A stretch of 64,000 nucleotides of DNA, from contig JAJCXT010000055.1 in the NCBI GenBank assembly GCA_029263295.1, positions 17,085 to 81,084 on the forward strand, read 5' to 3'. Shown here one piece after another: positions 311 through 45,860 of this stretch (within the stretch, counting starts at the first letter, position 1; each line of letters starts with the position of its first letter). The notes below the pieces were generated by a model. The model saw only the letters and a list, made by a program, of their open reading frames with translations, was not told the DNA's origin and made no database searches. The translations under genes were made by a program, and so were the position numbers. This DNA is from Acidobacteriota bacterium. GTDB lineage: Bacteria; Acidobacteriota; UBA890; WLXD01.

Positions 311-392
311 CGGTCCCAGGGGTAGTCACGCAGGGCCGATGCTGGGACAATCGGCGGGCTCGTGCCGTCACTCTTGGAACGCCCCTTCGCTT

Positions 393-6056: not shown

Positions 6057-6076
6057 CGCCGCATGGAAATACTGCG

Positions 6077-12861: not shown

Positions 12862-12866
12862 GCACG

Positions 12867-13175
12867 ATGAGCCAACCGTTGCGCCCGCTGGTGTTCCAGA
12901 TTCTCCTGATCCTCAACGAGGAGGAAACACACGGCTACGGAATCATGAAAGCCGTTAACGAACGCACAGGCCGTAAGACGATCCTGGGACCGGCCACGCT
13001 CTACCGCACGCTCGGACAGATGCGTGACCAGGGACTGATCGACGAGACCCCCACCGACGATGAGCGGCGCCGCGTCTACACGCTGAGCGAAGAAGGGCGC
13101 CGCATGGCCCGGGACGAGGCCGAGCGCATGGCGATGCTCGTGGAACGGGCGCGCGCCGGGCGGCTCCTTGGCTAG
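12867..13175 (+). CDS. PadR-family transcriptional regulator (subtype B; module 2, downstream of its permease)
   Basis: 102 aa with 'LVFQILLILNEEETHGYGIMKAVNERTG...LYRTLGQMRDQGLI...RRVYTLSEEG'. It lies 5 bp after the ADOP2 stop. Confidence 0.85.
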   Translation: MSQPLRPLVFQILLILNEEETHGYGIMKAVNERTGRKTILGPATLYRTLGQMRDQGLIDETPTDDERRRVYTLSEEGRRMARDEAERMAMLVERARAGRLLG

Positions 13176-16257: not shown

Positions 16258-16260
16258 CGC

Positions 16261-17481: not shown

Positions 17482-17484
17482 TCC

Positions 17485-18261: not shown

Positions 18262-18357
18262 GGCATCCTCCACCGTTACTCGGATCGCCGGCCGCAGACG
18301 GCCGTGCTGGTTCAAGGATAACGCCAAAGAGGTGTCGCCGCTCGGATTTAGCCGGCC

Positions 18358-19510: not shown

Positions 19511-19849
19511 ATGACTCGTTCCGCAGCACTCAATGACGTCGAACAGTTTGTTCTACTGGCACTCTTGCGCCTCGGCGAGAACGCGTACGGGGTCCCGATC
19601 CGGGCAGAGATCGAGGAGCGAGCCGACCGCGCCATCTCGATGGCTGCCGTCTACGCAGCTCTGGACCGCATGCAGCGCGGTGGACTGATCGCAGCACAAC
19701 TTTCCGAGCCGCGCCCCGAGCGTGGCGGCCGCGCCCGCAAGCATTTTCGTTTACGTCCGGCAGGCACCCGCGCACTCGAGGACGCCCGCGGCGCGATGGA
19801 TCGCATGTGGGATGGCGTCGATCTGCCAACGGACGCGGAGGCACGGTGA
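19511..19849 (+). CDS. PadR-family transcriptional regulator (subtype A; module 3)
   Basis: 112 aa with 'LGENAYGVPIRAEIEERADRAISMAAVYAALDRMQRGGLI...ERGGRARKHFRL'. It is closest to PadR-1. Confidence 0.85.
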   Translation: MTRSAALNDVEQFVLLALLRLGENAYGVPIRAEIEERADRAISMAAVYAALDRMQRGGLIAAQLSEPRPERGGRARKHFRLRPAGTRALEDARGAMDRMWDGVDLPTDAEAR

Positions 19850-28661: not shown

Positions 28662-30053
28662 ATGACCACCACCAAGACGGCACTCATCGGCACGGCCCTC
28701 ACGCTCGTACTTGGACTGCAAGTCCCATCGGCGTTCGGTACGCCCGGCAGCGCGCGCCTGGAGGGCAACACCACCGCATTCATCAACGTTCATGTCGTGA
28801 GCATGAACCCGGCCCAGAAGAAGCCGTTGCTGAGGCGACAGACCGTCATCGTGCAGGACGGTCGCATCGTGGAGATCGGCAAAGCGAAAAGGGTCACCGT
28901 GCCGGACGGCGCCGAGATCATCAACGGCAAAGGCAAGCTCTACGTCCTGCCCGGGCTCGTCGACATGCACGTACACAACCGTGACGTGCTCGCACTGCCG
29001 GAAGACGTGACGCCTGAGGACATCTACACGATGTACTTCGCCAACGGCATCACGACGGTGCTCGACATGGCGGGGTTCAAGCAGGCCTTCCAGTGGAAGA
29101 AGGACATCGACCGCGGCAAGGTCCTTGGACCAGATTTCAACTTCACCAGTCCACTAATCGACGAGAGAGACTACGCCAGCCTAGCGCAGCTGGAATCGAC
29201 GATCAGCAAGTGGGTGAAGAGAGGCTACCCGTACATCAAGTCGCACGCCATCGCCGATCCAGCAACGCTCACGGCGATCCACAGCCTGGCCAACAAACTC
29301 GAAATACCGGTAATCGGCCACGCGCTGCGGCCGGGCTCACCGATCCAGGACACCCTGGCTCACGACCCCCTCATGATCGCCCACATCGAGGAGATCCTGA
29401 GCACCAGCGTCACCTCTCAGGTCGACTTCGAGGGACAGCTCGCGACACCGCTTCGCGACGTGGCCGCGAGCCGTGTGTGGGTGACGACCACCAATACCGT
29501 GTACGAGATCATCGCCAACACGGTAGACGACGACGCTTTCGCCAGGCTGCTGGGGCGCCCCGAGATGAAGTACATCCCACCCACCGCACGGTCACTGTGG
29601 GAGTTTCAGAACAAGTTCCGAGATCCGAGTTTCGGGGGCGACCGCGACTTCTGGATGGCACAACTCGCCATCGAGTCGTACATCGCAAACCAGCTCGTCG
29701 AACTCGGCGCGCTCGATCGCCTGCTACTGGGCTCAGACGCCGGCGGCCCGGAGCTGGTGCTCCCCGGCTTCTCGATCCATGACGAACTGCGCCTGTTGGT
29801 CGAGGCCGGGCTATCCCCGTGGGAGGCGACCCTGACCGGTACCTACAACCCGTCCGTGTTCTTCGGGACGATGGACGAGGTCGGCACCGTCGAAGAAGGC
29901 AAGCGTGCCGACCTGCTCCTCGTGAAGGGCAACCCACTGAAGAAGATCGGCCGGCTGGCGAAGCCGGCGGGGCTCATGGTCAATGGAGTCTTCCTGTCCG
30001 CGGCCGATCTTGCCGACCGGCTCGAAGCGCTGGCCGCCAAGTGGGTCAGCTGA
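28662..30053 (+). CDS. Secreted amidohydrolase-family metal-dependent hydrolase
   Basis: Signal peptide 'ALIGTALTLVLGLQVPSAFG'. 'LPGLVDMHVHN' is the HxH metal-binding start of the TIM-barrel amidohydrolases. The C-terminus is 'GKRADLLLV...NPL', typical of the family. Confidence 0.8.
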   Translation: MTTTKTALIGTALTLVLGLQVPSAFGTPGSARLEGNTTAFINVHVVSMNPAQKKPLLRRQTVIVQDGRIVEIGKAKRVTVPDGAEIINGKGKLYVLPGLVDMHVHNRDVLALPEDVTPEDIYTMYFANGITTVLDMAGFKQAFQWKKDIDRGKVLGPDFNFTSPLIDERDYASLAQLESTISKWVKRGYPYIKSHAIADPATLTAIHSLANKLEIPVIGHALRPGSPIQDTLAHDPLMIAHIEEILSTSVTSQVDFEGQLATPLRDVAASRVWVTTTNTVYEIIANTVDDDAFARLLGRPEMKYIPPTARSLWEFQNKFRDPSFGGDRDFWMAQLAIESYIANQLVELGALDRLLLGSDAGGPELVLPGFSIHDELRLLVEAGLSPWEATLTGTYNPSVFFGTMDEVGTVEEGKRADLLLVKGNPLKKIGRLAKPAGLMVNGVFLSAADLADRLEALAAKWVS

Positions 30054-30170
30054 CCGCCCCGCGGCAGTGAATCCTGACTGACGGCAGTGGGTTCAGGGGT
30101 AAATAGCGCGGCTCCGGATCCAGCAGGGCACGCTCGAGGTATTCGCTTGAGTTCATGTATGTCTCTAGAC

Positions 30171-30192
30171 ATATATGATCGCGATCATATAT
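30171..30192. promoter_or_regulatory. 22-bp perfect palindrome ATATATGATCGCGATCATATAT upstream of PadR-4 (candidate operator)
   Basis: It is fully self-complementary. It lies 40 bp upstream of the PadR-4 ATG, with an adjacent TCTAGA-containing imperfect dyad at 30156-30170. Confidence 0.55.
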
Positions 30193-30231
30193 CGTGGCTG
30201 ACGTCGAATCTGGCTCCAGCGAGGACAAGTA

Positions 30232-30606
30232 ATGAGCGGGACCGCATCAGAATCCGCGATTGGCGAACTCTTACCGTTGCACACGCGCGACTTTCACATC
30301 CTGCTGACATTGCTCGACGGCGACTGTCACGGCTACGGCCTGGTGAAGGCCATCGAGCGGCGCACCGCGGGCGAGCTGAGCCTCGATCCCGCCAATCTGT
30401 ATCGTGCCCTCCAACGGCTGAAGCAGAGCCGCCTGGTTCGCGACGCTGAAGCGCCGATCGCCGGCGAGGCCGATGGTCGCACGCGTCGTTATCACGGCAT
30501 CACCGATCTCGGCAGAACCACGCTCGAGGCAGAGGCTCAGCGCATGCGCCAGCTCGCCGACGCCGTGCAGGCCCGCGGCGCAGTGGCCTCGTCGGAGGAG
30601 TCGTGA
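30232..30606 (+). CDS. PadR-family transcriptional regulator (subtype B; module 4)
   Basis: 124 aa with 'FHILLTLLDGDCHGYGLVKAIERRTAGELSLDPANLYRALQRLKQSRLV'. Confidence 0.85.
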   Translation: MSGTASESAIGELLPLHTRDFHILLTLLDGDCHGYGLVKAIERRTAGELSLDPANLYRALQRLKQSRLVRDAEAPIAGEADGRTRRYHGITDLGRTTLEAEAQRMRQLADAVQARGAVASSEES

Positions 30607-33359
30607 GCCGCGCCGGCGAAGGCATAAGGGCCGCCACGAAGCCACACGAGTGGGAGCCGCCCCGAGTCGGTTTGCGCACGTACCGTGCTGCGTACGCACT
30701 CCTGATCCGCACGCTACCGCGTCCGCTGCGACGCGACTACAGCGACGACATGCTGCGACTCGCCGACGAGTTGTACCGCGACGCCTCCGGACGCGGCCGC
30801 CGCGCCGCATTGACGCTGGCCGCAACGTCGATCACGCGGCTGCTCAGTAGCGCAATCGGCGCACGCATCCATCAACTGCGGGCCCGATTCGGATCCCGCT
30901 CCTCGCTCCCCCGTAGTCCCCGCCACGGAGGCAGTCCCTTGCACGGCCTGCACCACGACATTCGACTCGGCCTGCGCGCGCTCATCCGAGAGCCCGGGTA
31001 CGCAGCCCTCGTGATCTTCACCCTGGCCCTGGCCATCAGCGTCAACAGCACGATGTTCTCGATGGTGCGGATCCTGCTATCGCCACCAGTACCGTTCGTC
31101 GACATCGACAGGTTGGTCTTCCCGTACTCGCGCAATCAGGAACTCAACCGACAACGTGCCGGCGTCTCGCTTCCCGACATGCTGGATCTCGAAACCGCGG
31201 TGCCGGCGGTCTCGGCGCTGGTCGGACAACGTCGCGAGCGCTTCCTCGTAGCCGGATCCGAGGAGCCCGCCCGAGTCGGCGGGGCGACCGTATCGACCAA
31301 CTACTTCGAGGTGCTCGGCATTCAGCTTGAAATGGGACGCGACTTCCTGCCGGAAGAGTCGACGCCGGGGCGAGGTCGGGTCCTGTTGATCACGCATGGC
31401 AGCTGGGAGCGCCGTTTCGGGGAAGACCCGCAGATCCTGGGCCGTGAGGTGTTCCTGGACGGCATCGCTCACACCGTGGTGGGAGTACTCTCAGAGGGTC
31501 TGGAGGCGGGGCCTTCCCGCGCCATCGAGTTGTACCGACCACTGGCGCACGACGAGGCCACGCTGCGGCGAGATCTTCGTGATCTCTCCGTCATCGGCCG
31601 GCTTGCCTCCGGCGCCTCGTTCGAGCAGGCCGATGAAGGGCTCCTCGCCGCATCTCGCCAGTTACAGAGCGCCCACCCGGACAGCAATTCCGCGTGGGAG
31701 GTTGTCACCCTGGGATTCCGCCAGGCAATGGTCGGGACCAACGCGACGATGGTGTTCTCGCTCATGAGCGGCGCGGTCTTCTTCGTGCTGCTGATCGCGT
31801 GCATCAACGTCGCCAACCTCACGCTGGCGCGGGCCACCGCCCGGCGTCGCGAGTTGACCGTGCGGGTCGCCCTCGGCGCGCGCCGCTGGCGTGTGGTTCG
31901 TCAGATTCTCATCGAGAGCACCCTGCTCGCGCTGTTCGCCGCAGGCGTCGGACTGCTGCTGACCCGCGTCACTTTCGACGGCCTCGTCGCCCTGACCCGT
32001 GGGCGTGTGGGCCTGCTTACCGAGATGAACATCGATGGCGGCATGCTGGTGTTCACGTTGCTGTTGTCGCTGGCCACACCGATCCTGTTCGCGCTCTGGC
32101 CCGCTCTCAAAGCCTCGGGGGGAGACTTGAGCACGGAGCTCAGGAGCGGCGGTCGCGGTGCCAGCTTCGGGCGCTCGGAGCGTAGGCGACGCGGCGTTCT
32201 GGTAGCCACACAGATGACCCTTGCGCTGACGCTGCTGATTCTGGCCAGCCTCACCTCCCGCAGCATGTACGAGCTGCTGAGTATCGATCTCGGTTTCGAT
32301 GCAACCGACCTGCTCACCTTCCAGATCGAGCTACCGGAAGCCAACTATCCTGGCCCCGAGGTGGTCGAAGAGTTCTTCGCGTCGGCACGCGACGAGATCG
32401 CCACGATTCCCGGCGTTCAAGACGTAGCGATCGTCAGTCACCGCCCGATCGTCGGCGGCGAGCCCTCGCTGCGCCTGGTAATCGAGGGCAAGTCTGAAGG
32501 GCGAGGCGGCGACAGCGCCATGGCCGCGGTCGTGGCGGCCGACACGGGCCTCTTCGACACGGTCGGCGTCGCACTGTCGCGCGGTCGAGGTTTCGACCCC
32601 CGCGACGACGCGACCGGCGTTCCAGTTGCGATCGTTAGCCAGGCGGCGGTGGAGCGCTACTGGCCAGAGGGGGATGTGCTCGGCAGCCGCATTCAGATTG
32701 GCGCCGACTCGACGGTGGCGTGGCGCCAGGTCGTCGGCGTGGTCTCCGATCTGCGCAACCCCGACGCCAACCTCCCTCCCGAGCCTCACGTCTACCTGCC
32801 GTTCGCGCAGGATCCGCGCCCGACGATGTCATTCCTGGTCAGGACATCCGGATCGATGGACCAGTTTGCGACTGTGGTTCGCGAGCGGGTTTGGCAGATC
32901 GATCCGCTGCAACCAATCGACGACTTCCGCACCATGCAACAAATCCGCCATGACGACCTCAGCGGTGACCTGGCCATGATCGGCCTGATCGCGCTGTTCG
33001 GAGTCGTCGCGTTCGGCCTCGCTGTCGCCGGGGTCTACGGCGTCGTCTCCTACTCGGTCAGCCAGCGGCGTCGCGAAATCGGCGTGCGCATGGCGGTCGG
33101 CGCGCGCAGCCAGGACGTGCTCGGCATGGTGACCGGACAGGGCCTGACCCATGTGCTGGCTGGCGTCGTGGTCGGCCTTGCCCTCGGGCTCGGGATGTCG
33201 CGCTTGATCGCCGGAACGCTCTACGGCGTCAGCGTTGTCGACCCGGTGACGTTCCTCGGGGTTCCGCTGATGCTGCTTGGCGTGAGTCTCGTCGCCTCTA
33301 TCATCCCGGCCCGACGCGCTGCGCGACTCGACCCGGTGGATACGCTCAGGGTGGAATAG
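30603..33359 (+). CDS. MacB/FtsX-type duplicated orphan permease (ADOP family) with prefix domain (module 4)
   Basis: The GTG start overlaps the PadR-4 stop (GTGA). The prefix is 'YRAAYALLIRTLPRPLRRDYSDDMLRLADELYRD'. FtsX block 1 is 'NVANLTLARATARRRELTVRVALGA' and block 2 is 'YSVSQRRREIGVRMAVGA'. The C-terminus is 'PVDTLRVE'. Confidence 0.85.
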   Translation: MSRAGEGIRAATKPHEWEPPRVGLRTYRAAYALLIRTLPRPLRRDYSDDMLRLADELYRDASGRGRRAALTLAATSITRLLSSAIGARIHQLRARFGSRSSLPRSPRHGGSPLHGLHHDIRLGLRALIREPGYAALVIFTLALAISVNSTMFSMVRILLSPPVPFVDIDRLVFPYSRNQELNRQRAGVSLPDMLDLETAVPAVSALVGQRRERFLVAGSEEPARVGGATVSTNYFEVLGIQLEMGRDFLPEESTPGRGRVLLITHGSWERRFGEDPQILGREVFLDGIAHTVVGVLSEGLEAGPSRAIELYRPLAHDEATLRRDLRDLSVIGRLASGASFEQADEGLLAASRQLQSAHPDSNSAWEVVTLGFRQAMVGTNATMVFSLMSGAVFFVLLIACINVANLTLARATARRRELTVRVALGARRWRVVRQILIESTLLALFAAGVGLLLTRVTFDGLVALTRGRVGLLTEMNIDGGMLVFTLLLSLATPILFALWPALKASGGDLSTELRSGGRGASFGRSERRRRGVLVATQMTLALTLLILASLTSRSMYELLSIDLGFDATDLLTFQIELPEANYPGPEVVEEFFASARDEIATIPGVQDVAIVSHRPIVGGEPSLRLVIEGKSEGRGGDSAMAAVVAADTGLFDTVGVALSRGRGFDPRDDATGVPVAIVSQAAVERYWPEGDVLGSRIQIGADSTVAWRQVVGVVSDLRNPDANLPPEPHVYLPFAQDPRPTMSFLVRTSGSMDQFATVVRERVWQIDPLQPIDDFRTMQQIRHDDLSGDLAMIGLIALFGVVAFGLAVAGVYGVVSYSVSQRRREIGVRMAVGARSQDVLGMVTGQGLTHVLAGVVVGLALGLGMSRLIAGTLYGVSVVDPVTFLGVPLMLLGVSLVASIIPARRAARLDPVDTLRVE

Positions 33360-33441
33360 GCAACGGAGCCTTGCTCTGAGATCCGAAGTTCAGGGGCCCG
33401 TGGGTTTTCGGGCTGAGTCGCCGAGACTGAAGGGTAAATAA

Positions 33442-33473
33442 CTCGTATACTAGATATATACCTAGTATACGAG
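33442..33473. promoter_or_regulatory. Inverted repeat CTCGTATACTAG-N8-CTAGTATACGAG upstream of PadR-5 (candidate operator)
   Basis: It has perfect 12-bp arms and an 'atatatac' spacer. It lies about 65 bp upstream of the PadR-5 ATG in an AT-rich island. Confidence 0.55.
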
Positions 33474-33536
33474 CTAACCTTTCGACGCTTTCGCGCGTCT
33501 GACTATCTGAACGTCACCAACCCGCGAGCCCACACA

Positions 33537-33845
33537 ATGAGCAAACTCCGAATGACCTTCACGACCGGCGTGGTCCTGCAGTCTATTTCCAGCGGCCATC
33601 GTTACGGCTTCGACATCATGGACGTGTCGGGACTGCCCGACGGCACCGTCTACCCTGCCCTGCGTCGCCTCGAGGACGCGGGCATGCTCGTGTCCGAGTG
33701 GGAGTCGGAGGAGGCGGCCGGCAAGCGGCCGCCTCGCTGCTACTACGGGCTGACCGCCGACGGCGAGGAAATGCTCGCCACCGCGCGCGCGAAGTTCAGA
33801 GGGCTCGCGGGAGCCATCGCCGACCCGGACGCGGGGGCCAGGTAA
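33537..33845 (+). CDS. PadR-family transcriptional regulator (subtype C; module 5)
   Basis: 102 aa with 'GVVLQSISSGHRYGFDIMDVSGLPDGTVYPALRRLEDAGMLVSEWE...RCYYGLTADGEEML'. Confidence 0.8.
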   Translation: MSKLRMTFTTGVVLQSISSGHRYGFDIMDVSGLPDGTVYPALRRLEDAGMLVSEWESEEAAGKRPPRCYYGLTADGEEMLATARAKFRGLAGAIADPDAGAR

Positions 33846-36569
33846 GTGGGAACGTCAAATACCTTCCGTCCGGAATCTAAACTCGCGCCGAGCACCGGTA
33901 TCGCCTTGCGCGCGGGTCTCCTGGTCGTCCGCGCCGCGTCGTGGGTAGCGCCGGCCCGGGAACGCGATCGCTTTCACCGACAGTGGTGCGGCGAGCTGAG
34001 CTTCGCGGCTGAGCGCTCGACGACCTCCGGCCAAGCACTCCTGCGCCGCTCCCTCCTGGCGCTTCGTGATGCGGTCACTCTGCGCACCCGCCGAGCCCGG
34101 GGCGAGGGCCCCGCCGGCGCCACGCCTCCTGGCGGCCCCCGACCGCGGCTGCTGGAAGAATTCCTGCAGGATCTGCGCTTTGGTTTCCGCTCACTGCGGA
34201 AATCACCCGGGTTCACCGCCGTCGCGATCATGACCACCGCGCTGGGCATCGGCGCAACGACGACCATCTTCAGTCTCGTCGATGGCATCCTGCTCAAGCC
34301 GCTGCCCTACCCGGACCCCGAGCACCTGGTTGTGGTGTGGCCCGAGATGCACTTCTCCAGCGCGTTGATCGACCGCGTCGAACCGAGCCTCGAGGCCTAT
34401 GACGCGTTCTCCGGCTACGGCGACAGCTGGGAGTACACGTGGCTGAGGGACGATGGTGCCGAACGCCTGCGCGGGCCGATCGCCACGGCCGGGTTCTTCG
34501 ACGTCCTCGGAGTACCGATGACGCTCGGCCGCGGGTTCCAGGCCGGCGACGACGCTCCCGGGGCAACGAACGTTGTCCTGAGCGAACGCTTCTGGCGTGA
34601 GCGTCTCGAGGCCAGCCCCGATGTCATCGGCACTGCAATGCGAATCAACGGCCAGGAGCACGTCGTCGTTGGGGTCGGCGGACCGTCGATGAGTGCCTTC
34701 CATCCCGATGCCGACATCGTGATGCCATGGATACTCGATGCGGCGGCGCCGTCGTATCGATCGCAGGATCTGAAGCTCATCGCGCGACTGCGCGCCGGCG
34801 TCGGACCCGAGGCTGCGCTAGCCGAGTTGCGCGTCTTCATCGACGGGCTGAAAACCGAGTTCGAGTTGCCCGTCGACTTCGGCGACGACGCCGAGATCAT
34901 GCCGCTGCAGACCTACCTGGTGGGTGACAGCCGCCCGATGCTGCTACTGCTGTTCGGCGCCGTCGGCCTGACCTTGCTGATCGCCAGCGCCAACGTAGCC
35001 AACCTGTTGCTCGCGCGGGCCCTCGCACGACAGCGTGAGATCGCGGTCCGCGTCGCGCTCGGAGCCCGTGGCGGCAGGCTGGCGAGACAGATCCTCACCG
35101 AGACCTCGCTGCTCGGTTTGCTCGGTGCGATTCCGGGGGTCCTGCTCGCGGTCTTCGGGCTCAGCGTCGTGCTGTCGTTGTTGCCCGCAGACACACCGCG
35201 CCTCGCCAGCGTGGCCATCGACGGCACTGCCCTCGCTTTCTCGATCGGCATCGCCCTGCTCACCGGCTGCGCCGTGGGTGTTATTCCCGCCATCCAGGCG
35301 GCGCGCTCCGACGTGCGCGACACGCTGACCTCGGGCGGGCGTAGTGGCAGCGACAGCGCCGGGCGACAGCGCCTGCGCCGCCTCGTGGTCCTGTCCGAAA
35401 TCGCCCTGGCTGTCACGCTGGTCGCCGCCGCCGGACTCCTCGTCAAGAGTTTCCTGCGGGTCACGGACGTCGACCCTGGATTCCAGCCGGACGGACTGGT
35501 GACCTTCAACATCGACCCTGCCCGGGAGACGCTGGGTTCCGCGTCCGAGGCGCGCCAGTATTACGCGCGCCTGCGGGAGCGGCTCGACGCTCTTCCGGGA
35601 GTCGGCGAGACCTCCTCGGTCTGGAAGGTGGCCTTCAGTGAGGATGGCGGGCTCAACGGTCTGCGGCGCGCGGACAAGCCGCTGAACCCCGACGACCGGG
35701 GTGAACTCGTCCGCTGGCGTCCAGTCGCTAACAACTACTTCGCTACAGCCGGACTCCGCCTGCGGCGCGGACGCCTCTTCGCGTCGGACGACGAGGGCGG
35801 CGAACCGGTTACGGTGATCTCGCAGGCAATGACCGACGTCCTCTTCCCCGGCGAAGACCCCATCGGCCATCAGATCTTGACCACCATGGAACGAGAAGTT
35901 CCGCTGCGCATCATCGGCGTCGTGGAAGACCTGAAACTAGCCGGCCTCGATCGCGCTGGTCCGGCGGTCGCCTATCGGCCCTACGCGCAAGTTGACGAGA
36001 TCATGACGGAATACGGGATGTTCTATCGGCGCTGGATCGTCCTGCGCACGGCCGGCTCACCGGCACCCGGGATCGCTGCGACGATCCGCAACGCCGTGCG
36101 CGAGGAGGACCCCACCGCACTGTTTGCAGACTACGTCGCGATGCCTACCGCCATCAGCAACTCGCTGGCGGCGAGGCGAGCCACCATGACCCTCCTGACG
36201 GTGTTCGCCCTCTCGGCGGTCACCCTTGGCGCCATCGGCATCTATGGCGTGATGGCCTATGCGGTACGGCAACGTGCGCGGGAGATCAGCATCCGCGTGG
36301 CGCTCGGAGCGACGCAGCGACGAGTCATCCGCGATGTGATCAGCGATTCGCTCAAGGTCGCCCTCGGCGGCACTGCCCTCGGTCTTGTCCTGACTCTCGG
36401 CGCGGCGCAGTGGGTGCGAGAGTTCCTGTTCGAGGTCGACGCGTTCGATCCCGTCGTACTCGCAGCGGCGGCCGGGTCCGCGATGCTTGTCGCGGTGACG
36501 GCTTCGTTGCTGCCGGCATGGCGAGCCGCACAGGCGGATCCGGCAACGACCCTCGGAAGCGACGAGTAG
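33846..36569 (+). CDS. MacB/FtsX-type duplicated orphan permease (ADOP family) with prefix domain (module 5)
   Basis: The GTG start directly abuts the PadR-5 TAA. The prefix is 'ALRAGLLVVRAASWVAPARERDRFHRQWCGELSFAAE'. FtsX block 1 is 'NVANLLLARALARQREIAVRVALGA' and block 2 is 'YAVRQRAREISIRVALGA'. The C-terminus is 'PATTLGSDE'. Confidence 0.85.
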   Translation: MGTSNTFRPESKLAPSTGIALRAGLLVVRAASWVAPARERDRFHRQWCGELSFAAERSTTSGQALLRRSLLALRDAVTLRTRRARGEGPAGATPPGGPRPRLLEEFLQDLRFGFRSLRKSPGFTAVAIMTTALGIGATTTIFSLVDGILLKPLPYPDPEHLVVVWPEMHFSSALIDRVEPSLEAYDAFSGYGDSWEYTWLRDDGAERLRGPIATAGFFDVLGVPMTLGRGFQAGDDAPGATNVVLSERFWRERLEASPDVIGTAMRINGQEHVVVGVGGPSMSAFHPDADIVMPWILDAAAPSYRSQDLKLIARLRAGVGPEAALAELRVFIDGLKTEFELPVDFGDDAEIMPLQTYLVGDSRPMLLLLFGAVGLTLLIASANVANLLLARALARQREIAVRVALGARGGRLARQILTETSLLGLLGAIPGVLLAVFGLSVVLSLLPADTPRLASVAIDGTALAFSIGIALLTGCAVGVIPAIQAARSDVRDTLTSGGRSGSDSAGRQRLRRLVVLSEIALAVTLVAAAGLLVKSFLRVTDVDPGFQPDGLVTFNIDPARETLGSASEARQYYARLRERLDALPGVGETSSVWKVAFSEDGGLNGLRRADKPLNPDDRGELVRWRPVANNYFATAGLRLRRGRLFASDDEGGEPVTVISQAMTDVLFPGEDPIGHQILTTMEREVPLRIIGVVEDLKLAGLDRAGPAVAYRPYAQVDEIMTEYGMFYRRWIVLRTAGSPAPGIAATIRNAVREEDPTALFADYVAMPTAISNSLAARRATMTLLTVFALSAVTLGAIGIYGVMAYAVRQRAREISIRVALGATQRRVIRDVISDSLKVALGGTALGLVLTLGAAQWVREFLFEVDAFDPVVLAAAAGSAMLVAVTASLLPAWRAAQADPATTLGSDE

Positions 36570-36615
36570 GCACAGTCGTCACGGGTACTTGCGGACGGTG
36601 ATTTGCTTTTATATA

Positions 36616-36646
36616 TGTAAATCGAATATATTCACTTTGATTTACA
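36616..36646. promoter_or_regulatory. Nested dyad: TGTAAATC-N15-GATTTACA enclosing the perfect 10-bp palindrome GAATATATTC, upstream of PadR-6
   Basis: 'tgtaaatcgaatatattcactttgatttaca' ends 16 bp before the GTG start at 36662. The RBS AGGAG is at 36651-36655. Confidence 0.55.
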
Positions 36647-36661
36647 CAGAAGGAGTCTCCC

Positions 36662-37006
36662 GTGTCTGAACCGCAAGATTTGATTCCGCTTCGACCCGTT
36701 GACCTACAAATCCTGCTCGTGCTTGCCAACGCCAACCTGCATGGTTACGGCGTGATGAAGGCCGTTCGGGAAGAGTCGGGCGGCCGGGTCGGCCTCGAAG
36801 TCGGGTCGCTCTACCGCGTCATCAACCGCCTGCTGGACAGCGACCTGATCGAGCAGGTCGCGCCGGCAGCCGGCAGCGATGACCCGCGACGCAAACACGA
36901 CTACGCCATCACCGAACTCGGCCGTGCCACGGTTCGCGCCGAGAGCGAGCGCCTCGCCCAGGTGTTGGCCACCGCGCGCGCACGCGACCTGGCTGGCCGA
37001 GCGTGA
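36662..37006 (+). CDS. PadR-family transcriptional regulator (subtype B; module 6)
   Basis: 114 aa with 'VDLQILLVLANANLHGYGVMKAVREESGGRVGLEVGSLYRVINRLLDSDLI'. Confidence 0.85.
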   Translation: MSEPQDLIPLRPVDLQILLVLANANLHGYGVMKAVREESGGRVGLEVGSLYRVINRLLDSDLIEQVAPAAGSDDPRRKHDYAITELGRATVRAESERLAQVLATARARDLAGRA

Positions 37007-39732
37007 GCGACCTCCGCGTTCCCGGACTGACGCTCGCCGCGCACCTGCTGCGATCGGCTACGCTCGCGTACCCTCTCGCCTTTCGCCGCCGCTTCGCGTC
37101 CGAGATGCAGTGCGCGTTCCAGGAGCGCTGCTCGGACGCTTGGAGGGACCGCGGCAGCCGAGGACTAGCGGCGGCCGTGAGCCGCACGATTCTCGATGTC
37201 CTCCGCGCCGGATTGGGCGAACGACTCGAACACCGCCGTACCGCTCCCGCACCTGGCCCCCACCTCCGCCCCGATCCCCCAGATCGTGTGCCCATGTTCA
37301 GCTCGACTCTGCAAGACATCCGTTTCGCAGCCCGTCTGTTGCGCAAGAACCCCGGATTCACTCTGGTGGCTGTGCTCACGTTGGCCCTCGGCATCGGCGC
37401 GAACACCGCCATCTTCACGCTCGTCGACTCGCTCCTCGGCCGCCCGCTGCCCGGCATCGAGGACTCGGACAGCCTGTTCGCCCTCTACACCGCGGACAGC
37501 GGCGGCTCGCCTGGCGTCTCGTCGATCGTCGATTTCCGTGACTTCGAGGAACAACTCGACACTGTGTCCGGCGTCGCCGCCTACAAGCCACGCGGAGCCA
37601 ACGTCAGCAACGGCGGCGTGACCGAGCAATTGTCGAGCATGATGGTCACGGGCAGCTACTTCGAGGTGCTTGGTGTCGCTGCAGTCCTCGGCCGAACGAT
37701 CGGGCTGGAGGACGACATCGAGCCCGACGGCCACCCCGTAGGGCTGATCTCGTATGGCCTGTGGCAGCGACGCTTCGCCGGCGATCCGGATGCCGTAGGC
37801 AGCGAGCTTCGAGTCAACGGTCGCGCGTTCACGATCATCGGCGTCACCCCACGAGGCTTCCGAGGAACCTGGCTGGAAAGCGGACCCGACCTATTCGTCC
37901 CCATGGCAATGCAGCCAACCATGATGCCGGGTAACGGCAACCTTCTGGAGCGGCGAGGCTGGGGCGGAGTCCTGGTGCTCGGACGCAGGGCCGAGGGACA
38001 GAGCGTGGAAGCCGTCCGGGCCGAGATCGAGACCGTCGGCGCCTGGCTGCGGACGACGTTTCGTGTGGCCCAGGGACGCGACTATCAGGTCGTATCGTTC
38101 GCCGAGGGAACCATGGCCCCACAGGCGCGAACGATGGTGGTTCAGCTCAGCGCGTTGTTGTTCATCGTGGCCGGATTGGTCCTCCTGATCGCCTGTGTGA
38201 ACGTAGCGAATCTGCTACTGGCGCGAGCCGCCAGACGGACTCGCGAAATCGCGGTGCGCCAGGCACTCGGAGCTGGCCGCCGACGGATCGTCAATCAACT
38301 GATGGCCGAGAGCCTGCTGTTGAGCGGACTCGGAGGCGTCGTCGGCATAGGCGTTGGCGCCTTCCTGGCGCGCGCTGTCGGCCAGCTCCCTGTCGGCCTC
38401 ACGATGGCGACGGGCATCGACCAGCGCGCTCTGCTCTTCTGTGCGGGAGTGACTCTCCTCACCGGGCTGGCTTTCGGGCTCGTTCCGGCTCGCCGCGCCG
38501 CCCAGATCGACGTCAACAGCCGCTTGCGCGATGGCGGGCAGAACGTCTCGGCCCGCGGCGGGCTCTCGAGCGGCCTGGTCGTTGTGCAGGTGGCGATCTC
38601 TGTCGTGCTGCTGGTCACCGCGGGTCTGTTTGTGCGGACCCTCGCCAACCTGAGTCGTCTGGACCTCGGCTTCGACCCTGCTGTGGCGACCGTTGGCACG
38701 GACCCCGGCCTGCAGGGCTATTCGACTGCCGAGACGGCACAGTTCTACGCAGCGGCCCGGGAGCGGCTGGCCGCGCTGCCAGGTGTGCAGCGCGTCAGCT
38801 ACGTCAACGCGCTACCGGGCCCGGAGAACGACGGCGAGGACACCTTCTCGATCGACGGCTACGCCCCTGCCGACGGCAACCCCGTCGCGCTCTTCAGCCT
38901 CGTCGGGCCTGACTACTTCGAGCTACTCCGCATCCCGATCGTGGAGGGTCGGGGCCTGCTCGTCACGGACACAGAAGGCACTCAGGGCGTGGTAGTGATC
39001 AACCAGGCTGGCGCCGACCGACTCGAGCAACTCACCGGTCGGCCCGGGCTAGGCGCCCGCCTCAGTGTCTTCGGCAGCCCGTGGGTCGAGGTTGTCGGCG
39101 TGGTCGCTAACAGCGTGACCAGCGGTGTCGCCGACGCCCCCCGCACCACACTGTATGTGCCCCAGCAGCAGCTGGCCTCCACACCATTCGCTTCGCGAAT
39201 GACGCTGCTAGTACGAGCTGACGGCGAGCCGGCCACCATGGTCGAGGAGGTGCGGAACGTCGTGCGCTCAATCGACCCCGCGTTGCCCGTCTTCAACGTT
39301 GGCACGCTGGAAACACGGATGGCGAGCGCGCTCGCCCAGGAACGCCTCACCGCCGTGGCCATAGGCGCCGCCGCCCTTTTGGCACTGGCGCTGGCGCTCG
39401 TCGGCCTGTACGGAATCCTCGCCTATACCGTGAGTCGCCGGGCAGCGGAACTCGGAGTCCGTATGGCCCTCGGCGCCGACGCCTCGCACCTCGTACGGAT
39501 GGTGCTCCGGCAAGCCTCTGCTTTGGTCGTGCTGGGCCTGGTGTTCGGGTTAGCCGGCGCGGCCGCGCTTGCTGGGCTGGTGGAGGGCTTCCTGTTCGAT
39601 GTCGCGGCCCTCGACGTGGCCACCTACGTCGGAGTCCTGGCACTGATGTTCGCCGTCAGCCTGGCTGCCGCATGGGTACCCGCGCGGCGCGCCACGAGCC
39701 TGGACCCGGTACGCGCACTCCGCAGCGAGTAA
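37003..39732 (+). CDS. MacB/FtsX-type duplicated orphan permease (ADOP family) with prefix domain (module 6)
   Basis: The GTG start overlaps the PadR-6 stop (GTGA). The prefix is 'LTLAAHLLRSATLAYPLAFRRRFASEMQCAFQERCSD'. FtsX block 1 is 'NVANLLLARAARRTREIAVRQALGA' and block 2 is 'YTVSRRAAELGVRMALGA'. The C-terminus is 'PVRALRSE'. Confidence 0.85.
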   Translation: MSDLRVPGLTLAAHLLRSATLAYPLAFRRRFASEMQCAFQERCSDAWRDRGSRGLAAAVSRTILDVLRAGLGERLEHRRTAPAPGPHLRPDPPDRVPMFSSTLQDIRFAARLLRKNPGFTLVAVLTLALGIGANTAIFTLVDSLLGRPLPGIEDSDSLFALYTADSGGSPGVSSIVDFRDFEEQLDTVSGVAAYKPRGANVSNGGVTEQLSSMMVTGSYFEVLGVAAVLGRTIGLEDDIEPDGHPVGLISYGLWQRRFAGDPDAVGSELRVNGRAFTIIGVTPRGFRGTWLESGPDLFVPMAMQPTMMPGNGNLLERRGWGGVLVLGRRAEGQSVEAVRAEIETVGAWLRTTFRVAQGRDYQVVSFAEGTMAPQARTMVVQLSALLFIVAGLVLLIACVNVANLLLARAARRTREIAVRQALGAGRRRIVNQLMAESLLLSGLGGVVGIGVGAFLARAVGQLPVGLTMATGIDQRALLFCAGVTLLTGLAFGLVPARRAAQIDVNSRLRDGGQNVSARGGLSSGLVVVQVAISVVLLVTAGLFVRTLANLSRLDLGFDPAVATVGTDPGLQGYSTAETAQFYAAARERLAALPGVQRVSYVNALPGPENDGEDTFSIDGYAPADGNPVALFSLVGPDYFELLRIPIVEGRGLLVTDTEGTQGVVVINQAGADRLEQLTGRPGLGARLSVFGSPWVEVVGVVANSVTSGVADAPRTTLYVPQQQLASTPFASRMTLLVRADGEPATMVEEVRNVVRSIDPALPVFNVGTLETRMASALAQERLTAVAIGAAALLALALALVGLYGILAYTVSRRAAELGVRMALGADASHLVRMVLRQASALVVLGLVFGLAGAAALAGLVEGFLFDVAALDVATYVGVLALMFAVSLAAAWVPARRATSLDPVRALRSE

Positions 39733-41306: not shown

Positions 41307-44300
41307 CTACTGCTGCTGGTCCCGGTCCGGGTACTGGAACCGCAGGTCCGGGTACGCCGGGGCTGCCGGGATCGCACGCGGGTCTTCTGCAATCTTCTGC
41401 AGCAGGTACTCGATGGCCGTGTCGAGTTGCGCGTCTTCGCCGTTGAAGGTGGCGTGCGGCAGGTTGATCACCTCGATGTCGGGCACCACGCCCCACTGCT
41501 CGATCAGCCATTCACCTTCCGGGCCATAGACGCCGCTCATGGGCGCCCGGGCCAGGCCACCATCGCTGAGGCGGTTCGTCGACGAGAGCCAGATCTCGCC
41601 GCCCCATGTGCGGGCGCCGATCACCGGGCCCATGCCGAGGCGACGAAACCCTTCCGCGAACGCCTCACCGTCCGACGCGGTGTTCTCGTCCACCAGGACG
41701 ACCATGTGACCGCGGAAGGCGTATTGCATGTTCCAGGTCGACCGGCCAACGCGACCCTTCCAGTAGAACCACGCCGGCCGCATCAGCTTCTCGAGGATGA
41801 TGCTGTCGATGTTGCCGCCACGGTTGCGGCGCACGTCGACGATCAAGCCCGGCCGATCGTGTACGGGGTAGAACTGCCGATACCAGGCGTTGATGTCGTT
41901 GGATCCCATCGCCCGCAAATGGACGTAGCCGATCTCGCCCGCGGCCACGTCTTCGACCTCCAGCCTCCGGGTGTACTCCCAGTCGCTGTAGCGCAGGTTC
42001 AGTTCGTTGGTGGTGGGCACGACGATTAGGTCGCGACTCTCGCCGCCGGCTCCCGGCCGCACACGTAGCAACACCTGTCTGCCCTGCTGGTTGCGGAGCA
42101 AGGCGCCGATGTGTCCCACGGACAGCGTGTCGACGCCGTTGACCGCCACGATGACGTCACCGTTGGCGAGACCCAGGCCGGGGTCCGCCAGCGGCGACAG
42201 CTCGTCCGGGTAGTCCGGGTCACCCTCGTAGATGTGATCGATCCGGTACCCGCCGGCGTCCGGATCGCGAACCAGGCGCGCCCCGAGGGTCGCAACTGCC
42301 ACATCGTCATCGCCCTCGCGTAGGTCGCCGCCGCGCACGCTGGTGTGCAGCGCCGATAGTTCGCCGATCACCCGACCGATGAGCTGGTTGAGTTCAGCTC
42401 GTGTCGTCACGCGGCCGACGAGTTCGAGGTACTTCTCCAACACGACATCCCAGGCAGCCCCGTGCATGCCGGGATCGTAGAAGTAGTCGCGTTCGAGCCG
42501 CCAGGCATCGACGAAGAGTTGCCGCCAGTCGGCTGCGACGTCGATCGAGAAGGTCCAACCACTGAGGTCGACCTTGCTCTTGGCGAGACTACCGTTGGCG
42601 CTGCCAGGCCTGGCGTTGATGACGTAGATGTCGCTGCCGCGTCGCACCATCAGCTTCTTGCCGTTGGCGGACAGCTCGTACCCACCTATCCCCTCGAGCA
42701 CTTGCTCGGGCTCGGGGTCATCGTTGCCGATAGCCATGCCCATCAGATTCCCGCGGAAGCTGCCGGACTGGCGCGCGCGCCAGAATAGAGCGTCCTTCGT
42801 GACCGAGAGGCCTGAGTAGTTGCCGGGCGAGACCGGCACTTCCTTGACGCGCCGCGCGATGCCGTCGAGGTCGACGGCCATGCCGCTGGTGCCGGAGTGT
42901 CCGGGCTCGTCATCGCCGTCTGCCGACTCCGCCTTCGAGTCGTCGGCATCAGCCAGCGCCCGGCTGAGTTCGTCATCCGGCGTGAACGGCGAGCGCAGGC
43001 CTGCCTGCATGGAGATCTGGTAGACCTTCATCGTGCGATCGAAGTAAGGCTCGGGAGCCCGAGGGCCCCAGGGGCTACCGACAGACGTTCGCAGGTTGCG
43101 ATCTGAGAGGAAGTACAGCCATTCGCCGTCGGGGCTGAACGCGGGACTGACGCTGTTCACGCGGTCCGAGGTCAGCGCGGTGCGCGCGTCGGTCGCCAGC
43201 TCGTACAGCCAGAGTTGGGCGTACGTGTTCATCGCGGCCTGCACGTACGTCAGCCAACGGCTATCGGGCGACCAGGCAACGTCGCCTGTCCCCTCGCGGT
43301 TCGTCGAAACCAGGCGCTGCTGACCGGTCTCCACCTCAAGCAGCCACAGGTCGTTGTTGTTGTCCGTGTACGCAACCATATGTCCATCAGGCGACGGCGT
43401 TCCCTCGAAGCGCAGCACGGCGCCGTCATCGGTGATGGGCGTTTCCTCACCAACCCCGTTGGCAGGAATGGTCGCAAACTCGAGTTCTCCCGAGGTGTCG
43501 GTAAGCCCCAACAGCGTCTCACCGTCGGGCATGAAAACGACGTCACGGTAGCGCACGCCTTCTCGGCGTGAGGCGCGGACCAGTCGACCCGAACCGGCGG
43601 GCGCCACGAACACGCGGCCGCGCGAGGTCAGCACGACGCTCTCGCCATCGGGATGGATGTGGGCCGAACTCAGGTAGTCCATCGGTTCGGTGACCCACTT
43701 CTCACGCATCTGGTCGAAGTCGGAGGCAAGGCTGATCGGCACCAGCGCGTCCGCGTCCGCCGCGATGTCATACGTCCAGATGTCGGCGCCGACCTGGTAG
43801 GCGATGTGACCCTGGGCTATCGAGGCTTCCTTCACATCCCAGCCGCTGTGCTGGGTGTGCTGCTGCAGGTCGCTGCCGGCCTCGTTCATCGACCAGATGT
43901 TCATCGTGCCATCGCGAGGCGTCACGAAGTACACGCGGCCGTTCCACCACATCGGCGTGTGGCTCTCACCGTCATAGTCGGCGGTGAGCGGCTCGGCTTC
44001 GGGCGCACCCGACTCGTACTTCCAGATCTTGCGCGCGGTTCCGCCGGTGTAGCGCTTGGTTACGTTGCCGTGGAAACCGGGCCGAACGAAGAAGATCGTG
44101 GCGCCATCGTCGCGGTACGCGACCTCGCTCGCGTCGGCCAACGGCACAACGCTACGTGTGTTGGCGGCCAGATCGAGTTCCACCAACTGGCGCTTGGGCA
44201 AGGTGGAGTAGCTGGCCGTTGCGTAGACCAGATCCCCTGCCGGAGTCCAACCCACGGGTGTCGACGAATCGGCTTCGTAGGTCTGCCGCGTCGGCAGCCC

Positions 44301-44603
44301 GCCAGCGAACGGCATCGTATAGACCTCGGCCACACCTTCGTAGTTGCCGCGATAGGCCAGCGTTCGGCCATCCGGCGAGATCGTCGGGTAGCTCTCCTCT
44401 TCGGCATGCGTCGTCAGCCGCTGCGCGAGCCCGCCCGAGGCGGCAACCTGCCATAGGTCCCCCTCGGCGGCGAACACCAGTGTGTCGCCGTGCAAAGTTG
44501 GATAGCGATAGTACCCTTCCCTGCCACCCTGCGACCAAGCGGTGGACGAGAACAACAACACGGCAACAACTGCGAGCACGCGACGCATGGTGAGCTCCTT
44601 CAT
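41307..44603 (-). CDS. Tricorn protease homologue (N-terminal beta-propellers, PDZ, C-terminal S41 peptidase)
   Basis: 1098 aa. A signal peptide is followed by 'YRYPTLHGDTLVFAAEGDLWQV', the characteristic tricorn N-terminus, then repeated PD40/propeller blades, a PDZ-like region and a C-terminal S41-like region. Confidence 0.7.
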   Translation of the reverse strand: MKELTMRRVLAVVAVLLFSSTAWSQGGREGYYRYPTLHGDTLVFAAEGDLWQVAASGGLAQRLTTHAEEESYPTISPDGRTLAYRGNYEGVAEVYTMPFAGGLPTRQTYEADSSTPVGWTPAGDLVYATASYSTLPKRQLVELDLAANTRSVVPLADASEVAYRDDGATIFFVRPGFHGNVTKRYTGGTARKIWKYESGAPEAEPLTADYDGESHTPMWWNGRVYFVTPRDGTMNIWSMNEAGSDLQQHTQHSGWDVKEASIAQGHIAYQVGADIWTYDIAADADALVPISLASDFDQMREKWVTEPMDYLSSAHIHPDGESVVLTSRGRVFVAPAGSGRLVRASRREGVRYRDVVFMPDGETLLGLTDTSGELEFATIPANGVGEETPITDDGAVLRFEGTPSPDGHMVAYTDNNNDLWLLEVETGQQRLVSTNREGTGDVAWSPDSRWLTYVQAAMNTYAQLWLYELATDARTALTSDRVNSVSPAFSPDGEWLYFLSDRNLRTSVGSPWGPRAPEPYFDRTMKVYQISMQAGLRSPFTPDDELSRALADADDSKAESADGDDEPGHSGTSGMAVDLDGIARRVKEVPVSPGNYSGLSVTKDALFWRARQSGSFRGNLMGMAIGNDDPEPEQVLEGIGGYELSANGKKLMVRRGSDIYVINARPGSANGSLAKSKVDLSGWTFSIDVAADWRQLFVDAWRLERDYFYDPGMHGAAWDVVLEKYLELVGRVTTRAELNQLIGRVIGELSALHTSVRGGDLREGDDDVAVATLGARLVRDPDAGGYRIDHIYEGDPDYPDELSPLADPGLGLANGDVIVAVNGVDTLSVGHIGALLRNQQGRQVLLRVRPGAGGESRDLIVVPTTNELNLRYSDWEYTRRLEVEDVAAGEIGYVHLRAMGSNDINAWYRQFYPVHDRPGLIVDVRRNRGGNIDSIILEKLMRPAWFYWKGRVGRSTWNMQYAFRGHMVVLVDENTASDGEAFAEGFRRLGMGPVIGARTWGGEIWLSSTNRLSDGGLARAPMSGVYGPEGEWLIEQWGVVPDIEVINLPHATFNGEDAQLDTAIEYLLQKIAEDPRAIPAAPAYPDLRFQYPDRDQQQ

Positions 44604-45670
44604 TCAGGCTGGGGTGATGCCCCCGAATACCAGGCCGACATCACGTCGGCCGCCAGCTTGTTCTGCGGTGTGAATCCTATGTCTCCCTGGCCGCCGACGG
44701 CGGAGTGTCCGGGGAACCACTTCCACCAGTAGGCACCAGCGACCCAGTCGTGGTGCCAGAAGGTACGAAAGAAGGCCTCGTAGAGCCTCTCCTGCAGGAC
44801 GGCATCAAAACCGCTGTCGTCTTCGCGCTCAGGCCACTCCCATGGGCGCTCAGCGGCCTCTTGCCAGGAGCGGTACCCGATCTCGGTGAAGAGTATCGGC
44901 CGGCCAGCACCTGCCTGGACCTCGCGGATCGCGTCGAAGTGCGGCCGCCACCCGGCGAGCAGTGACGCCATGTCGGGATTCGGGTCCCCGCTCAGCGGGA
45001 AATAGCCCTGTAGCCCTATGTAGTCGAGCTCTTCCCAGAACGGCACGGCTTCGAATTCTTCGTACCAGTTCGCCGCGTACGTGAGTTCGCCCGAGTAGAC
45101 AGCGCGAATCTCGGTGATCAACTCGAACCACTTCTGCGGTCGGGCGACGATCGTCTTGTGCAGCTCGGTGCCGATGCACAGCAGCGGAATGTCGTTCTCT
45201 TCGGCGAAGCGTGCGTAGTGCAGGATGAAGGTCTGATAGCTGGCGAACCACTCATTCCAGGCCTCGTCGGTGCCCATGTAGATATCGCCGCGCCAGTCGT
45301 CGCGCCCCACCCAGATGTGCGGTTTGAGCATCGTCTGGACTCCCCGCGCGCGGGCCAGTTCCGTCGTTTCGCGCAGCCCCTCATCGGTCTCACCCCACAA
45401 CACCTGTCCCTCGATTACCAACCGGATTTCCGGCGAGTCGCTGGCCGTCTGCCAGCCGAAAGGTGTCTGCGCGATCCACTCAACGTTGTGCTCGACCAGC
45501 GGCGATATCGCCGCCGCGTCGATACTACGGCCGGCCACCCACGCGACGCCGTGTTGACGCGCTGGCGTAGTGGGGCCTGCGTCCTGAGCCGTCGCGCCAC
45601 CCTGCGCCAAGGCGGTCAGGAGCACCGTGGCGGCGATGAAGACGGGGGTCGGTCTCGAGTTGGCTTGCAA
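44600..45670 (-). CDS. Secreted clan GH-A (TIM-barrel) glycoside hydrolase, a paralogue of 58981-60132
   Basis: The TTG start at 45670 gives signal peptide 'PTPVFIAATVLLTALAQG'. Candidate catalytic Glu residues are in 'IGTELHK' and 'LFTEIGYRS'. Other motifs are 'LKPHIWV' and 'TYAANWYEEFE'. The stop overlaps the tricorn start (ATGA). Confidence 0.6.
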   Translation of the reverse strand: MQANSRPTPVFIAATVLLTALAQGGATAQDAGPTTPARQHGVAWVAGRSIDAAAISPLVEHNVEWIAQTPFGWQTASDSPEIRLVIEGQVLWGETDEGLRETTELARARGVQTMLKPHIWVGRDDWRGDIYMGTDEAWNEWFASYQTFILHYARFAEENDIPLLCIGTELHKTIVARPQKWFELITEIRAVYSGELTYAANWYEEFEAVPFWEELDYIGLQGYFPLSGDPNPDMASLLAGWRPHFDAIREVQAGAGRPILFTEIGYRSWQEAAERPWEWPEREDDSGFDAVLQERLYEAFFRTFWHHDWVAGAYWWKWFPGHSAVGGQGDIGFTPQNKLAADVMSAWYSGASPQPE

Positions 45671-45860
45671 GCGAGCGCGCCTGGGGATGAGTCGGAATCG
45701 ACGACTGTCCGATGGCGGCAAGCATACGCGCGCTACCCGCCCGTACGCCAATTCAGTGCGGGTCACTTCGGAAGTCGCCCGACGGCAACCGTGTGCAACG
45801 TCTCTCCGCAATGACCTCCCAGTTCGAGGTGTCGAGGCCGCGGCGCCTATAATCGCGCGG

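Follow-up and report, generated by a model that had tools for sequence, protein, structure and literature searches.

ADOP families are duplicated FtsX/MacB-PCD permeases with no adjoining ATPase gene; their paralogs are expanded, and their genes regularly lie beside PadR genes. In soil Acidobacteriota and Gemmatimonadota, few protein families are as expanded or as poorly understood, and a literature search found no experimental study of ADOP permeases. In the HAAS-PadR dyad described by Ravi et al., an N-terminal domain of three helices and about 70 amino acids (aa), always beside a standalone PadR, is carried by proteins with multiple transmembrane (TM) segments or sensor modules (10.1101/2020.09.24.301986, PMC11237479). 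The fusions listed there include FtsX-like TM and MacB/PCD proteins, and the dyad was proposed as an alternative to two-component signalling (10.1101/2020.09.24.301986). We analysed a 64,000-nucleotide (nt) stretch of a contig from an Acidobacteriota bacterium (JAJCXT010000055.1), hereafter the window, in which three pairs of PadR and ADOP-permease genes, modules 4, 5 and 6, follow each other head to tail on the plus strand from 30232 to 39732. The six open reading frames are exactly where a previous, sequence-only reading of this DNA had placed them.

The array is real and consists of PadR-ADOP modules of the HAAS-PadR type, an association that is already represented, together with prefix domains, in NCBIfam models. 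Our preferred interpretation, to which we give a probability of about 0.7, is that the modules are three padR-adop bicistronic operons, that the N-terminal extension of each permease (the prefix) is the partner of the cognate PadR in a signalling dyad of the HAAS-PadR kind, and that each operon represses itself. Two elements are added here. The prefix types of modules 4 to 6 are not covered by current models, and each is locked to its own PadR clade. In addition, one of these types, which we call C46, is a widespread PadR-partner domain well beyond permeases.

Prefix types and PadR clades

PadR4, PadR5 and PadR6 matched Pfam PadR (PF03551) with 50.4, 46.2 and 47.9 bits, all above the gathering threshold of 27, and ADOP4, ADOP5 and ADOP6 scored 796, 779 and 800 bits with the NCBIfam ADOP model TIGR03434 (cutoff 622.3). 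Pfam FtsX (PF02687) and MacB-PCD (PF12704) each matched two stretches in every one of the three permeases, which are identical to public gene calls of 918 (P0001), 907 and 909 aa; their orthologs are labelled 'Acidobacteria bacterium'. Across the array and its flanks, no ATPase domain was found in any module and no ATPase gene adjoining them.

The presence of a prefix and that of a PadR gene go together. We tallied 168 complete ADOP genes in 80 genome loci that contain ADOP relatives. Wherever a PadR gene was directly upstream (32 ADOPs), the permease carried an N-terminal extension of 71 to 116 aa; ADOPs without a prefix had no PadR and typically started 3 aa before the core. Eleven other ADOPs had a prefix; eight of them were second or third genes of PadR-headed arrays, and the remaining three formed a tandem at the edge of a locus (L057), with no PadR visible. 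Overall, the prefix lay next to the PadR in 34 of the 34 adjacent cases in genome loci.

Four sequence types of prefix were distinguished, perm_prefix_1, perm_prefix_2, C46 and C5. The first is the commonest and is absent from this window. perm_prefix_2 (NF038404, cutoff 35 bits) was recognized in ADOP1 and ADOP3 of the neighbouring modules (57 and 44 bits), and the prefixes of ADOP2, 4, 5 and 6 gave no match at E <= 10 to NF038403 or NF038404. Twenty-seven homologs with a C5-type prefix were found. When PadR sequences were clustered, each of the four clusters (4, 10, 5 and 20 modules) corresponded exactly to one of the four prefix types; the ADOP cores, in contrast, mixed them. Accordingly grouped were the regulators of the window, PadR1 with PadR3 and PadR2 with PadR4 and PadR6, as are their shared prefix types. 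The match held in modules 1 and 2, in which the gene order is reversed and the PadR lies 2.7 kb from the prefix.

The C46 type extends far beyond ADOPs. Its profile retrieved 6190 clusters at E <= 1e-3 and 285 at E <= 1e-10 from 1.84 billion representative proteins (clusters at 50% identity). The best matches were mostly non-ADOP proteins of 75 to 410 aa, in which the domain was always N-terminal. Among the top 147 (P0351-P0497), the accompanying domains were Clp_N (6), MacB_PCD (4), Wzz/GNVR (4), TatC (2), protein kinase (1) and T2SSF (1), and the rest were unannotated multi-TM proteins. We also sampled metagenomes with a degenerate DNA motif scan (YP..FRR.[FY]G.EM), which is biased towards the C46 core motif, not towards PadR adjacency. 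In the 94 evaluable C46-domain genes obtained, a PadR gene was directly upstream of 89, downstream of 1 and missing next to 4; 103 of 104 PadRs adjacent to metagenomic C46 genes belonged to the PadR2/4/6 clade. A multi-TM protein and a Ser/Thr kinase (L089:2145-3370 and L090:2060-3432) each lie behind a PadR gene with a 1-nt overlap.

These pairings bear on a rival explanation, that of an ordinary drug- or ligand-sensing PadR repressor beside an efflux-type permease, in which the prefix would be otherwise employed, to dock an unlinked ATPase or as a structural element, and the gene overlap would reflect compaction. LmrR and PadR sense small molecules directly, ligand-binding PadR repressors of transporters are well established, and the prefix sits where MacB has its ATPase domain. 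Overlaps of 4 nt also occur in unrelated gene pairs of the window and of related contigs, and control of a transporter by a ligand-binding PadR repressor is known for LadR/mdrL (PMC6624303). Nevertheless, PadR clade and prefix type correspond one to one whatever the permease core or the gene order, and the same prefix type and the same PadR clade are found together on kinases, Wzz-like, Clp_N and small multi-TM proteins. A prefix that served the permease instead of the regulator would hardly account for such pairing on non-permeases, and we consider this rival explanation unlikely.

The prefixes are predicted to fold as three helices. AlphaFold2 placed them at residues 15-34, 37-56 and 62-84 in ADOP5 (span 33888-34097) and at residues 9-20, 25-50 and 52-79 in ADOP6 (span 37027-37239), with predicted local distance difference test (pLDDT) values of 80-89 and 81-89, respectively. 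An Arg/Pro-rich linker, predicted to be disordered (residues 85-100 in ADOP5 and 80-96 in ADOP6), leads into TM1, in ADOP5 by way of a juxtamembrane helix. A Gly is near-invariant at the boundary of helices 2 and 3 (G51 in ADOP6), with no conserved Pro; ADOP1 to ADOP3 have GPG, GNP and GLP. A sequence search of the PDB with the prefix profile returned nothing significant.

Translation starts and gene junctions

Since the TIGR03434 model begins only at residues 103-117 of these permeases (117 in ADOP4), the question is whether their first 100 or so codons are translated. The GTG of ADOP4 (30603) overlaps the TGA of PadR4 (30604-30606) in a GTGA, the start of ADOP6 overlaps the stop of PadR6 in the same way (37003-37006), and in module 5 the TAA of PadR5 (33843-33845) abuts the GTG of ADOP5 (33846-33848). 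That the permeases start at these overlapping or abutting GTGs, as the sequence-only reading had it, was borne out, as the conserved protein sequence reaches further upstream than any alternative start. In ADOP6, GTG 37003 is the sole start between the in-frame stop and a conserved PGL motif; ADOP5 offers just two in-frame starts before TM1, GTG 33846 and TTG 33906. For all six prefixes of the window, the proposed frame agrees with the guanine-plus-cytosine (GC) content at the codon positions, most weakly in ADOP5.

Orthologs tell the same story. A prefix of about 100 aa and a start codon at the PadR stop were kept in orthologs of 55-83% identity, and those at 60-83% identity had the same protein lengths with full coverage (916-917 aa for ADOP4 orthologs, 67-78% identical). 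The GTGA is present in all three members of the module-4 group (the window, L001 and L002). A 4-nt overlap is present in all five of the module-6 group, as GTGA in the window and ATGA, TTGA, GTGA and TTGA in its four orthologs. In the module-5 group, the gap is 0 nt in the window and 0, 1, 1 and 2 nt in the orthologs.

It might be argued that the permeases begin instead at an internal, canonical ADOP start, the upstream codons being a chance open frame in GC-rich DNA. Besides the late beginning of the ADOP model, ADOP1, 2, 3 and 6 hold an ATG exactly where prefix-less ADOPs start (3630, 10429, 20083 and 37294, respectively), ADOP4 has TTG 30939 with GGAGG 7 nt upstream, and some public gene calls take an internal start, such as P0239 (817 aa). 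However, ADOP5 has no start codon at the canonical position, the internal Met is not conserved among module-6 orthologs, and P0239 (L087:3700-4010) proved to be a truncated call: its frame remains open upstream, encoding a clear prefix, as far as a TTG that overlaps the PadR stop (TTGA). Orthologs conserve the amino-acid sequence of the prefix, which falls into defined families and is confidently folded by AlphaFold2, and the domain is present in thousands of other proteins. An internal start is thus highly improbable, and we reject the short permease as the main product; a minor short isoform may exist. The start codon at the prefix-less position in ADOP1, 2, 3, 4 and 6 explains why public calls sometimes drop the prefix through an internal ATG, which hides the domain from annotation. 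In another case, P0237, the call is of 896 aa and a second call of the same gene is of 912 aa.

Module 5 has a peculiarity that had escaped the sequence-only reading: PadR5 and ADOP5 are in one reading frame, with the TAA as its sole interruption, and the unrelated locus L079 shows the same arrangement with TAG followed by GTG. Read-through of this stop would yield a PadR-ADOP fusion and a membrane-tethered regulator. As the gaps of orthologs range from 0 to 2 nt, the shared frame is not conserved, being broken by gaps of 1 or 2 nt, and the 120 best ADOP5 homologs all lack a PadR domain. Searches for a recoding signal or an RNA family gave nothing. We rule out read-through on account of the frame breaks and the lack of fusions among the 120 homologs, and consider it very improbable.

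The tight junction is family-wide. Among the 89 metagenomic pairs of PadR and downstream partner, 46 overlapped by 4 nt (20 of 30 when the partner was an ADOP, 26 of 59 for other partners) and 15 by 1 nt; the start codon in the 4-nt overlaps was ATG in 22, GTG in 21 and TTG in 3. This proportion (52%) compares with about 9% (~4/44) of other co-directional neighbour pairs, as counted by hand in related contigs, and with 22% of 18 when only tight control pairs were considered. Conservation of a start codon at the PadR stop, together with the surplus of 4-nt overlaps, supports selection for a tight junction, probably reflecting translational coupling. The overlap is characteristic of PadR-ADOP modules but is an ordinary operon device.

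To call this coupling obligatory, as had been proposed, is plausible but goes beyond the data, as junctions range from -8 to +15 across the family, the frame shifts among module-5 orthologs and many starts have a Shine-Dalgarno (SD) motif. SD-like motifs precede 44-50% of partner starts, compared with 13% of control positions. Modules 3 and 4 have a strong motif and module 6 has none; the GGAGG 4 nt upstream of the ADOP4 start is present in the window only, not in orthologs. Module 6 and its orthologs have no SD motif and start with GTG, TTG or ATG, for which re-initiation by terminating ribosomes would be the simplest explanation. In translationally coupled pairs, the SD motif normally lies within the upstream gene. 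The sequence-only reading had considered that independent ribosome-binding sites of the permeases would refute coupling; for this reason, such sites are not decisive. A search for a junction hairpin sequestering the ribosome-binding site found none that stood out above shuffled controls (z-scores of -0.34 to 0.46).

The proposal of a fixed regulator-to-permease stoichiometry does not hold in general either. The window has one PadR per ADOP, modules 1 and 2 are in reverse order, and elsewhere, in loci of the Terriglobia or Pyrinomonadaceae type (L079, L082, L069, L040 and L021), one PadR heads two or three tandem ADOPs with perm_prefix_1.

Candidate operators and proposed regulation

The spacers that separate the modules, 33360-33536 (177 bp) and 36570-36661 (92 bp), are AT-rich and both hold palindromes, as previously noted. 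Their GC contents are 0.53 and 0.41, below the 0.65 of the whole window, and palindrome cores have 0.18-0.33. A repeat search found inverted repeats in all three upstream regions. That of module 4, TATGTCT-N2-AGACATA, is kept in the orthologous loci L001 and L002 despite divergence on either side; the adjoining perfect 22-bp palindrome ATATATGATCGCGATCATATAT (ATATATGATCG/CGATCATATAT) is partly conserved in L001 and not in L002. A sigma-70-like site (30166-30195), detected by a simple promoter scan, overlaps both repeats. All four loci orthologous to module 5 (L083-L086), with ADOPs as little as 56% identical, keep CGTATACTAG-N8-CTAGTATACG. L084 and L086 keep the module-6 core, there as the perfect palindrome ATCGAATATATTCGAT. 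An Rfam search of the spacers found no riboswitch or leader RNA, the best match (E 0.8) being inside ADOP5.

Since every module carries a palindrome of its own that orthologs preserve amid diverging flanks, the palindromes are likely operators, and modules 4, 5 and 6 are probably three separately autoregulated operons, to judge from these sequence comparisons. The PadR dimer of each module most likely binds its own AT-rich palindrome and represses its own operon. The ADOP is an 8-TM protein with duplicated FtsX/MacB-type periplasmic domains and no adjoining ATPase gene, whose first 80-110 or so residues form a cytoplasmic three-helix domain, the putative cognate partner of the adjacent PadR. 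A signal at the periplasmic or membrane part of the ADOP may then alter the hold of the prefix on PadR, or its release, and so change transcription. With overlapping or abutting codons, the two genes would form one translation unit, in which the ribosome that ends PadR starts the permease at once. Such a unit would plausibly favour co-production and local assembly of PadR and ADOP; the partner-domain model gives a rationale to the coupling proposed in the sequence-only reading, since joint production of a regulator and the domain that binds it makes sense, as in sigma/anti-sigma pairs.

Several points weigh against three autoregulated dyads. The promoter scan found a promoter-like site upstream of module 4 only. 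No terminators were found between modules 4, 5 and 6, and read-through transcription across the array is therefore possible. The co-variation of PadR and prefix type could partly be co-inheritance of adjacent DNA. Neither the prefixes of the window nor the 147 C46 relatives matched Pfam HAAS (PF22564), and in hhalign comparisons the window prefixes reached E values of only 0.004-0.27 with perm_prefix_1 and HAAS-like profiles. A Foldseek search of the PDB with the prefix models found nothing, a result that says little for so small a helical domain. Thus, the modules behave exactly like HAAS-PadR dyads, but membership of modules 4 to 6 in HAAS is not demonstrated by sequence, and PadR-prefix binding, operator binding and coupling are all steps that we infer.

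The ADOP cores of modules 4 to 6 are only about 31% identical pairwise, and the PadRs are of different clades; we therefore regard the array as juxtaposed old paralogues. The tandem of modules 5 and 6 is kept in relatives at 67-71% identity, and the gene order module 6, tricorn protease, GH113 is kept in L088. Recent tandem duplication was ruled out by the low identity of the cores, the differences in PadR clades and operators, and the presence of the 5+6 tandem in distant relatives.

Coordinates of the modules and of their candidate control elements in the window
Feature	Position	Strand	Description
Module 1 (reverse order)	3366-6403	+	ADOP1 3366-6056 (perm_prefix_2), then PadR1 6077-6403
Module 2 (reverse order)	10186-13175	+	ADOP2 10186-12861 (C46-type prefix), then PadR2 12867-13175
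Module 3	19511-22542	+	PadR3 19511-19849, ADOP3 from GTG 19846; prefix is NCBIfam perm_prefix_2
Module-4 control region	30158-30192		TATGTCT-N2-AGACATA at 30158-30173, then 22-bp palindrome at 30171-30192
PadR4	30232-30606	+	124 aa, PadR-family winged-helix regulator, PadR2/4/6 clade
ADOP4	30603-33359	+	918 aa, duplicated FtsX/MacB-PCD permease; C46-type prefix, about residues 1-110 (30603-30932)
Module-5 operator candidate	33442-33473		CTCGTATACTAG-N8-CTAGTATACGAG
PadR5	33537-33845	+	102 aa, PadR clade of its own
ADOP5	33846-36569	+	907 aa, GTG start, C5-type prefix
Module-6 operator candidate	36611-36646		Core ATATATGTAAATCGAATATATTC (36611-36633) and inverted repeat TGTAAATCGAA-N9-TTTGATTTACA
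PadR6	36662-37006	+	114 aa, GTG start, AGGAG 6 nt 5' of the start; PadR2/4/6 clade
ADOP6	37003-39732	+	909 aa, C46-type prefix

Sequence comparison showed that the permeases of modules 1 to 3 are homologous to the ADOP family. The GTGA of module 3 was found as described before, with GTG 19846 of ADOP3 over the TGA of PadR3 (19847-19849). A second in-frame GTG lies further upstream, at 19807, and either start fits, since the perm_prefix_2 model begins at residue 5 of the protein that starts at 19846. For the reverse-order modules, the gap of 5 nt given for module 2 is right, whereas that of module 1 is 20 nt (6057-6076) and not 21.

A gene on the strand of ADOP1 (243-3308) encodes a Ser/Thr protein kinase of 1021 aa with PD40 beta-propeller repeats and stops 57 nt before the permease gene; a comparable kinase is found near the module-5 ortholog in L086. 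On the minus strand (15037-18327), consecutive genes spaced by 3 nt encode two LolCE-like FtsX/MacB-PCD permeases of 406 aa each and a LolA-like protein; they make up a conventional single-FtsX system, unlike the duplicated ADOPs. On one side of the array lies an amidohydrolase gene (28662-30053), on the other a tricorn-like S41 protease gene (41307-44603, minus strand). The latter is overlapped by 4 nt by a GH113 glycoside hydrolase gene on the same strand (44600-46009); NTGA-type overlaps are therefore not confined to PadR modules.

Comparison with known systems

In extracytoplasmic function (ECF) sigma/anti-sigma pairs, the regulator is co-transcribed with a membrane protein whose cytoplasmic helical N terminus binds it, often with overlapping genes and autoregulation. 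This likeness lends weight to the stoichiometry argument; here a PadR winged-helix protein takes the place of the sigma factor. Foldseek comparisons of the prefix with sigma-E region 2 and CnrH-CnrY gave no fold match (E > 2), and there was no sequence match. FtsX-type permeases with large extracytoplasmic domains relay conformation across the membrane in flux sensing by BceAB-BceRS and in the mechanotransmission of MacB. The analogy offers a plausible route from the periplasmic part of the ADOP to its prefix, although an ATPase and a histidine kinase take part in those systems and no gene of either sort adjoins the modules here.

The Listeria PadR repressors LstR and LltR chiefly regulate their own operons, which encode membrane proteins (PMC6624303). 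Their partners differ, being FtsW/RodA-like and small TM proteins of Firmicutes, and gene overlap and stoichiometry were no part of that work. Closer to home, the permeases of the window fit the ADOP family (TIGR03434), and modules 1 and 3 carry perm_prefix_2. Unlike that system, PadR4, PadR5 and PadR6 remain below the cutoff of TIGR03433, the model of acidobacterial PadR paralogs (59.1, 41.8 and 54.4 bits, cutoff 101.8), which is still their best-matching family, and the prefixes of ADOP2, 4, 5 and 6 fit neither prefix model.

As regards HAAS itself, hhalign firmly linked perm_prefix_1 to HAAS-matching sequences (E 3e-11); the C46, C5 and perm_prefix_2 types showed weak links, with pairwise E values from 3e-4 to 0.27, and those between types are suggestive at best (C46 with perm_prefix_2, 3e-4; C46 with C5, 8e-4). 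The prefixes of modules 4 to 6 appear to keep only the Gly at the turn between helices 2 and 3, in contrast with the third-helix kink at GxP in HAAS. The likeness to HAAS-PadR dyads is in the adjacency of C46 to PadR (95%), the N-terminal place of the domain, its three helices and the variety of fused partners. Going further, and with less than even confidence, we suggest that C46 and C5 may be large PadR-partner families beyond the catalogued HAAS, that the array may hold three insulated channels, and that the overlap may have been selected for co-translational pairing of cognate proteins. This 9.5-kb stretch offers three candidate operators, three prefix domains and three junctions. The pairing of cognate PadR and prefix would recast the 'orphan permeases' as the sensor or effector halves of small signalling modules.

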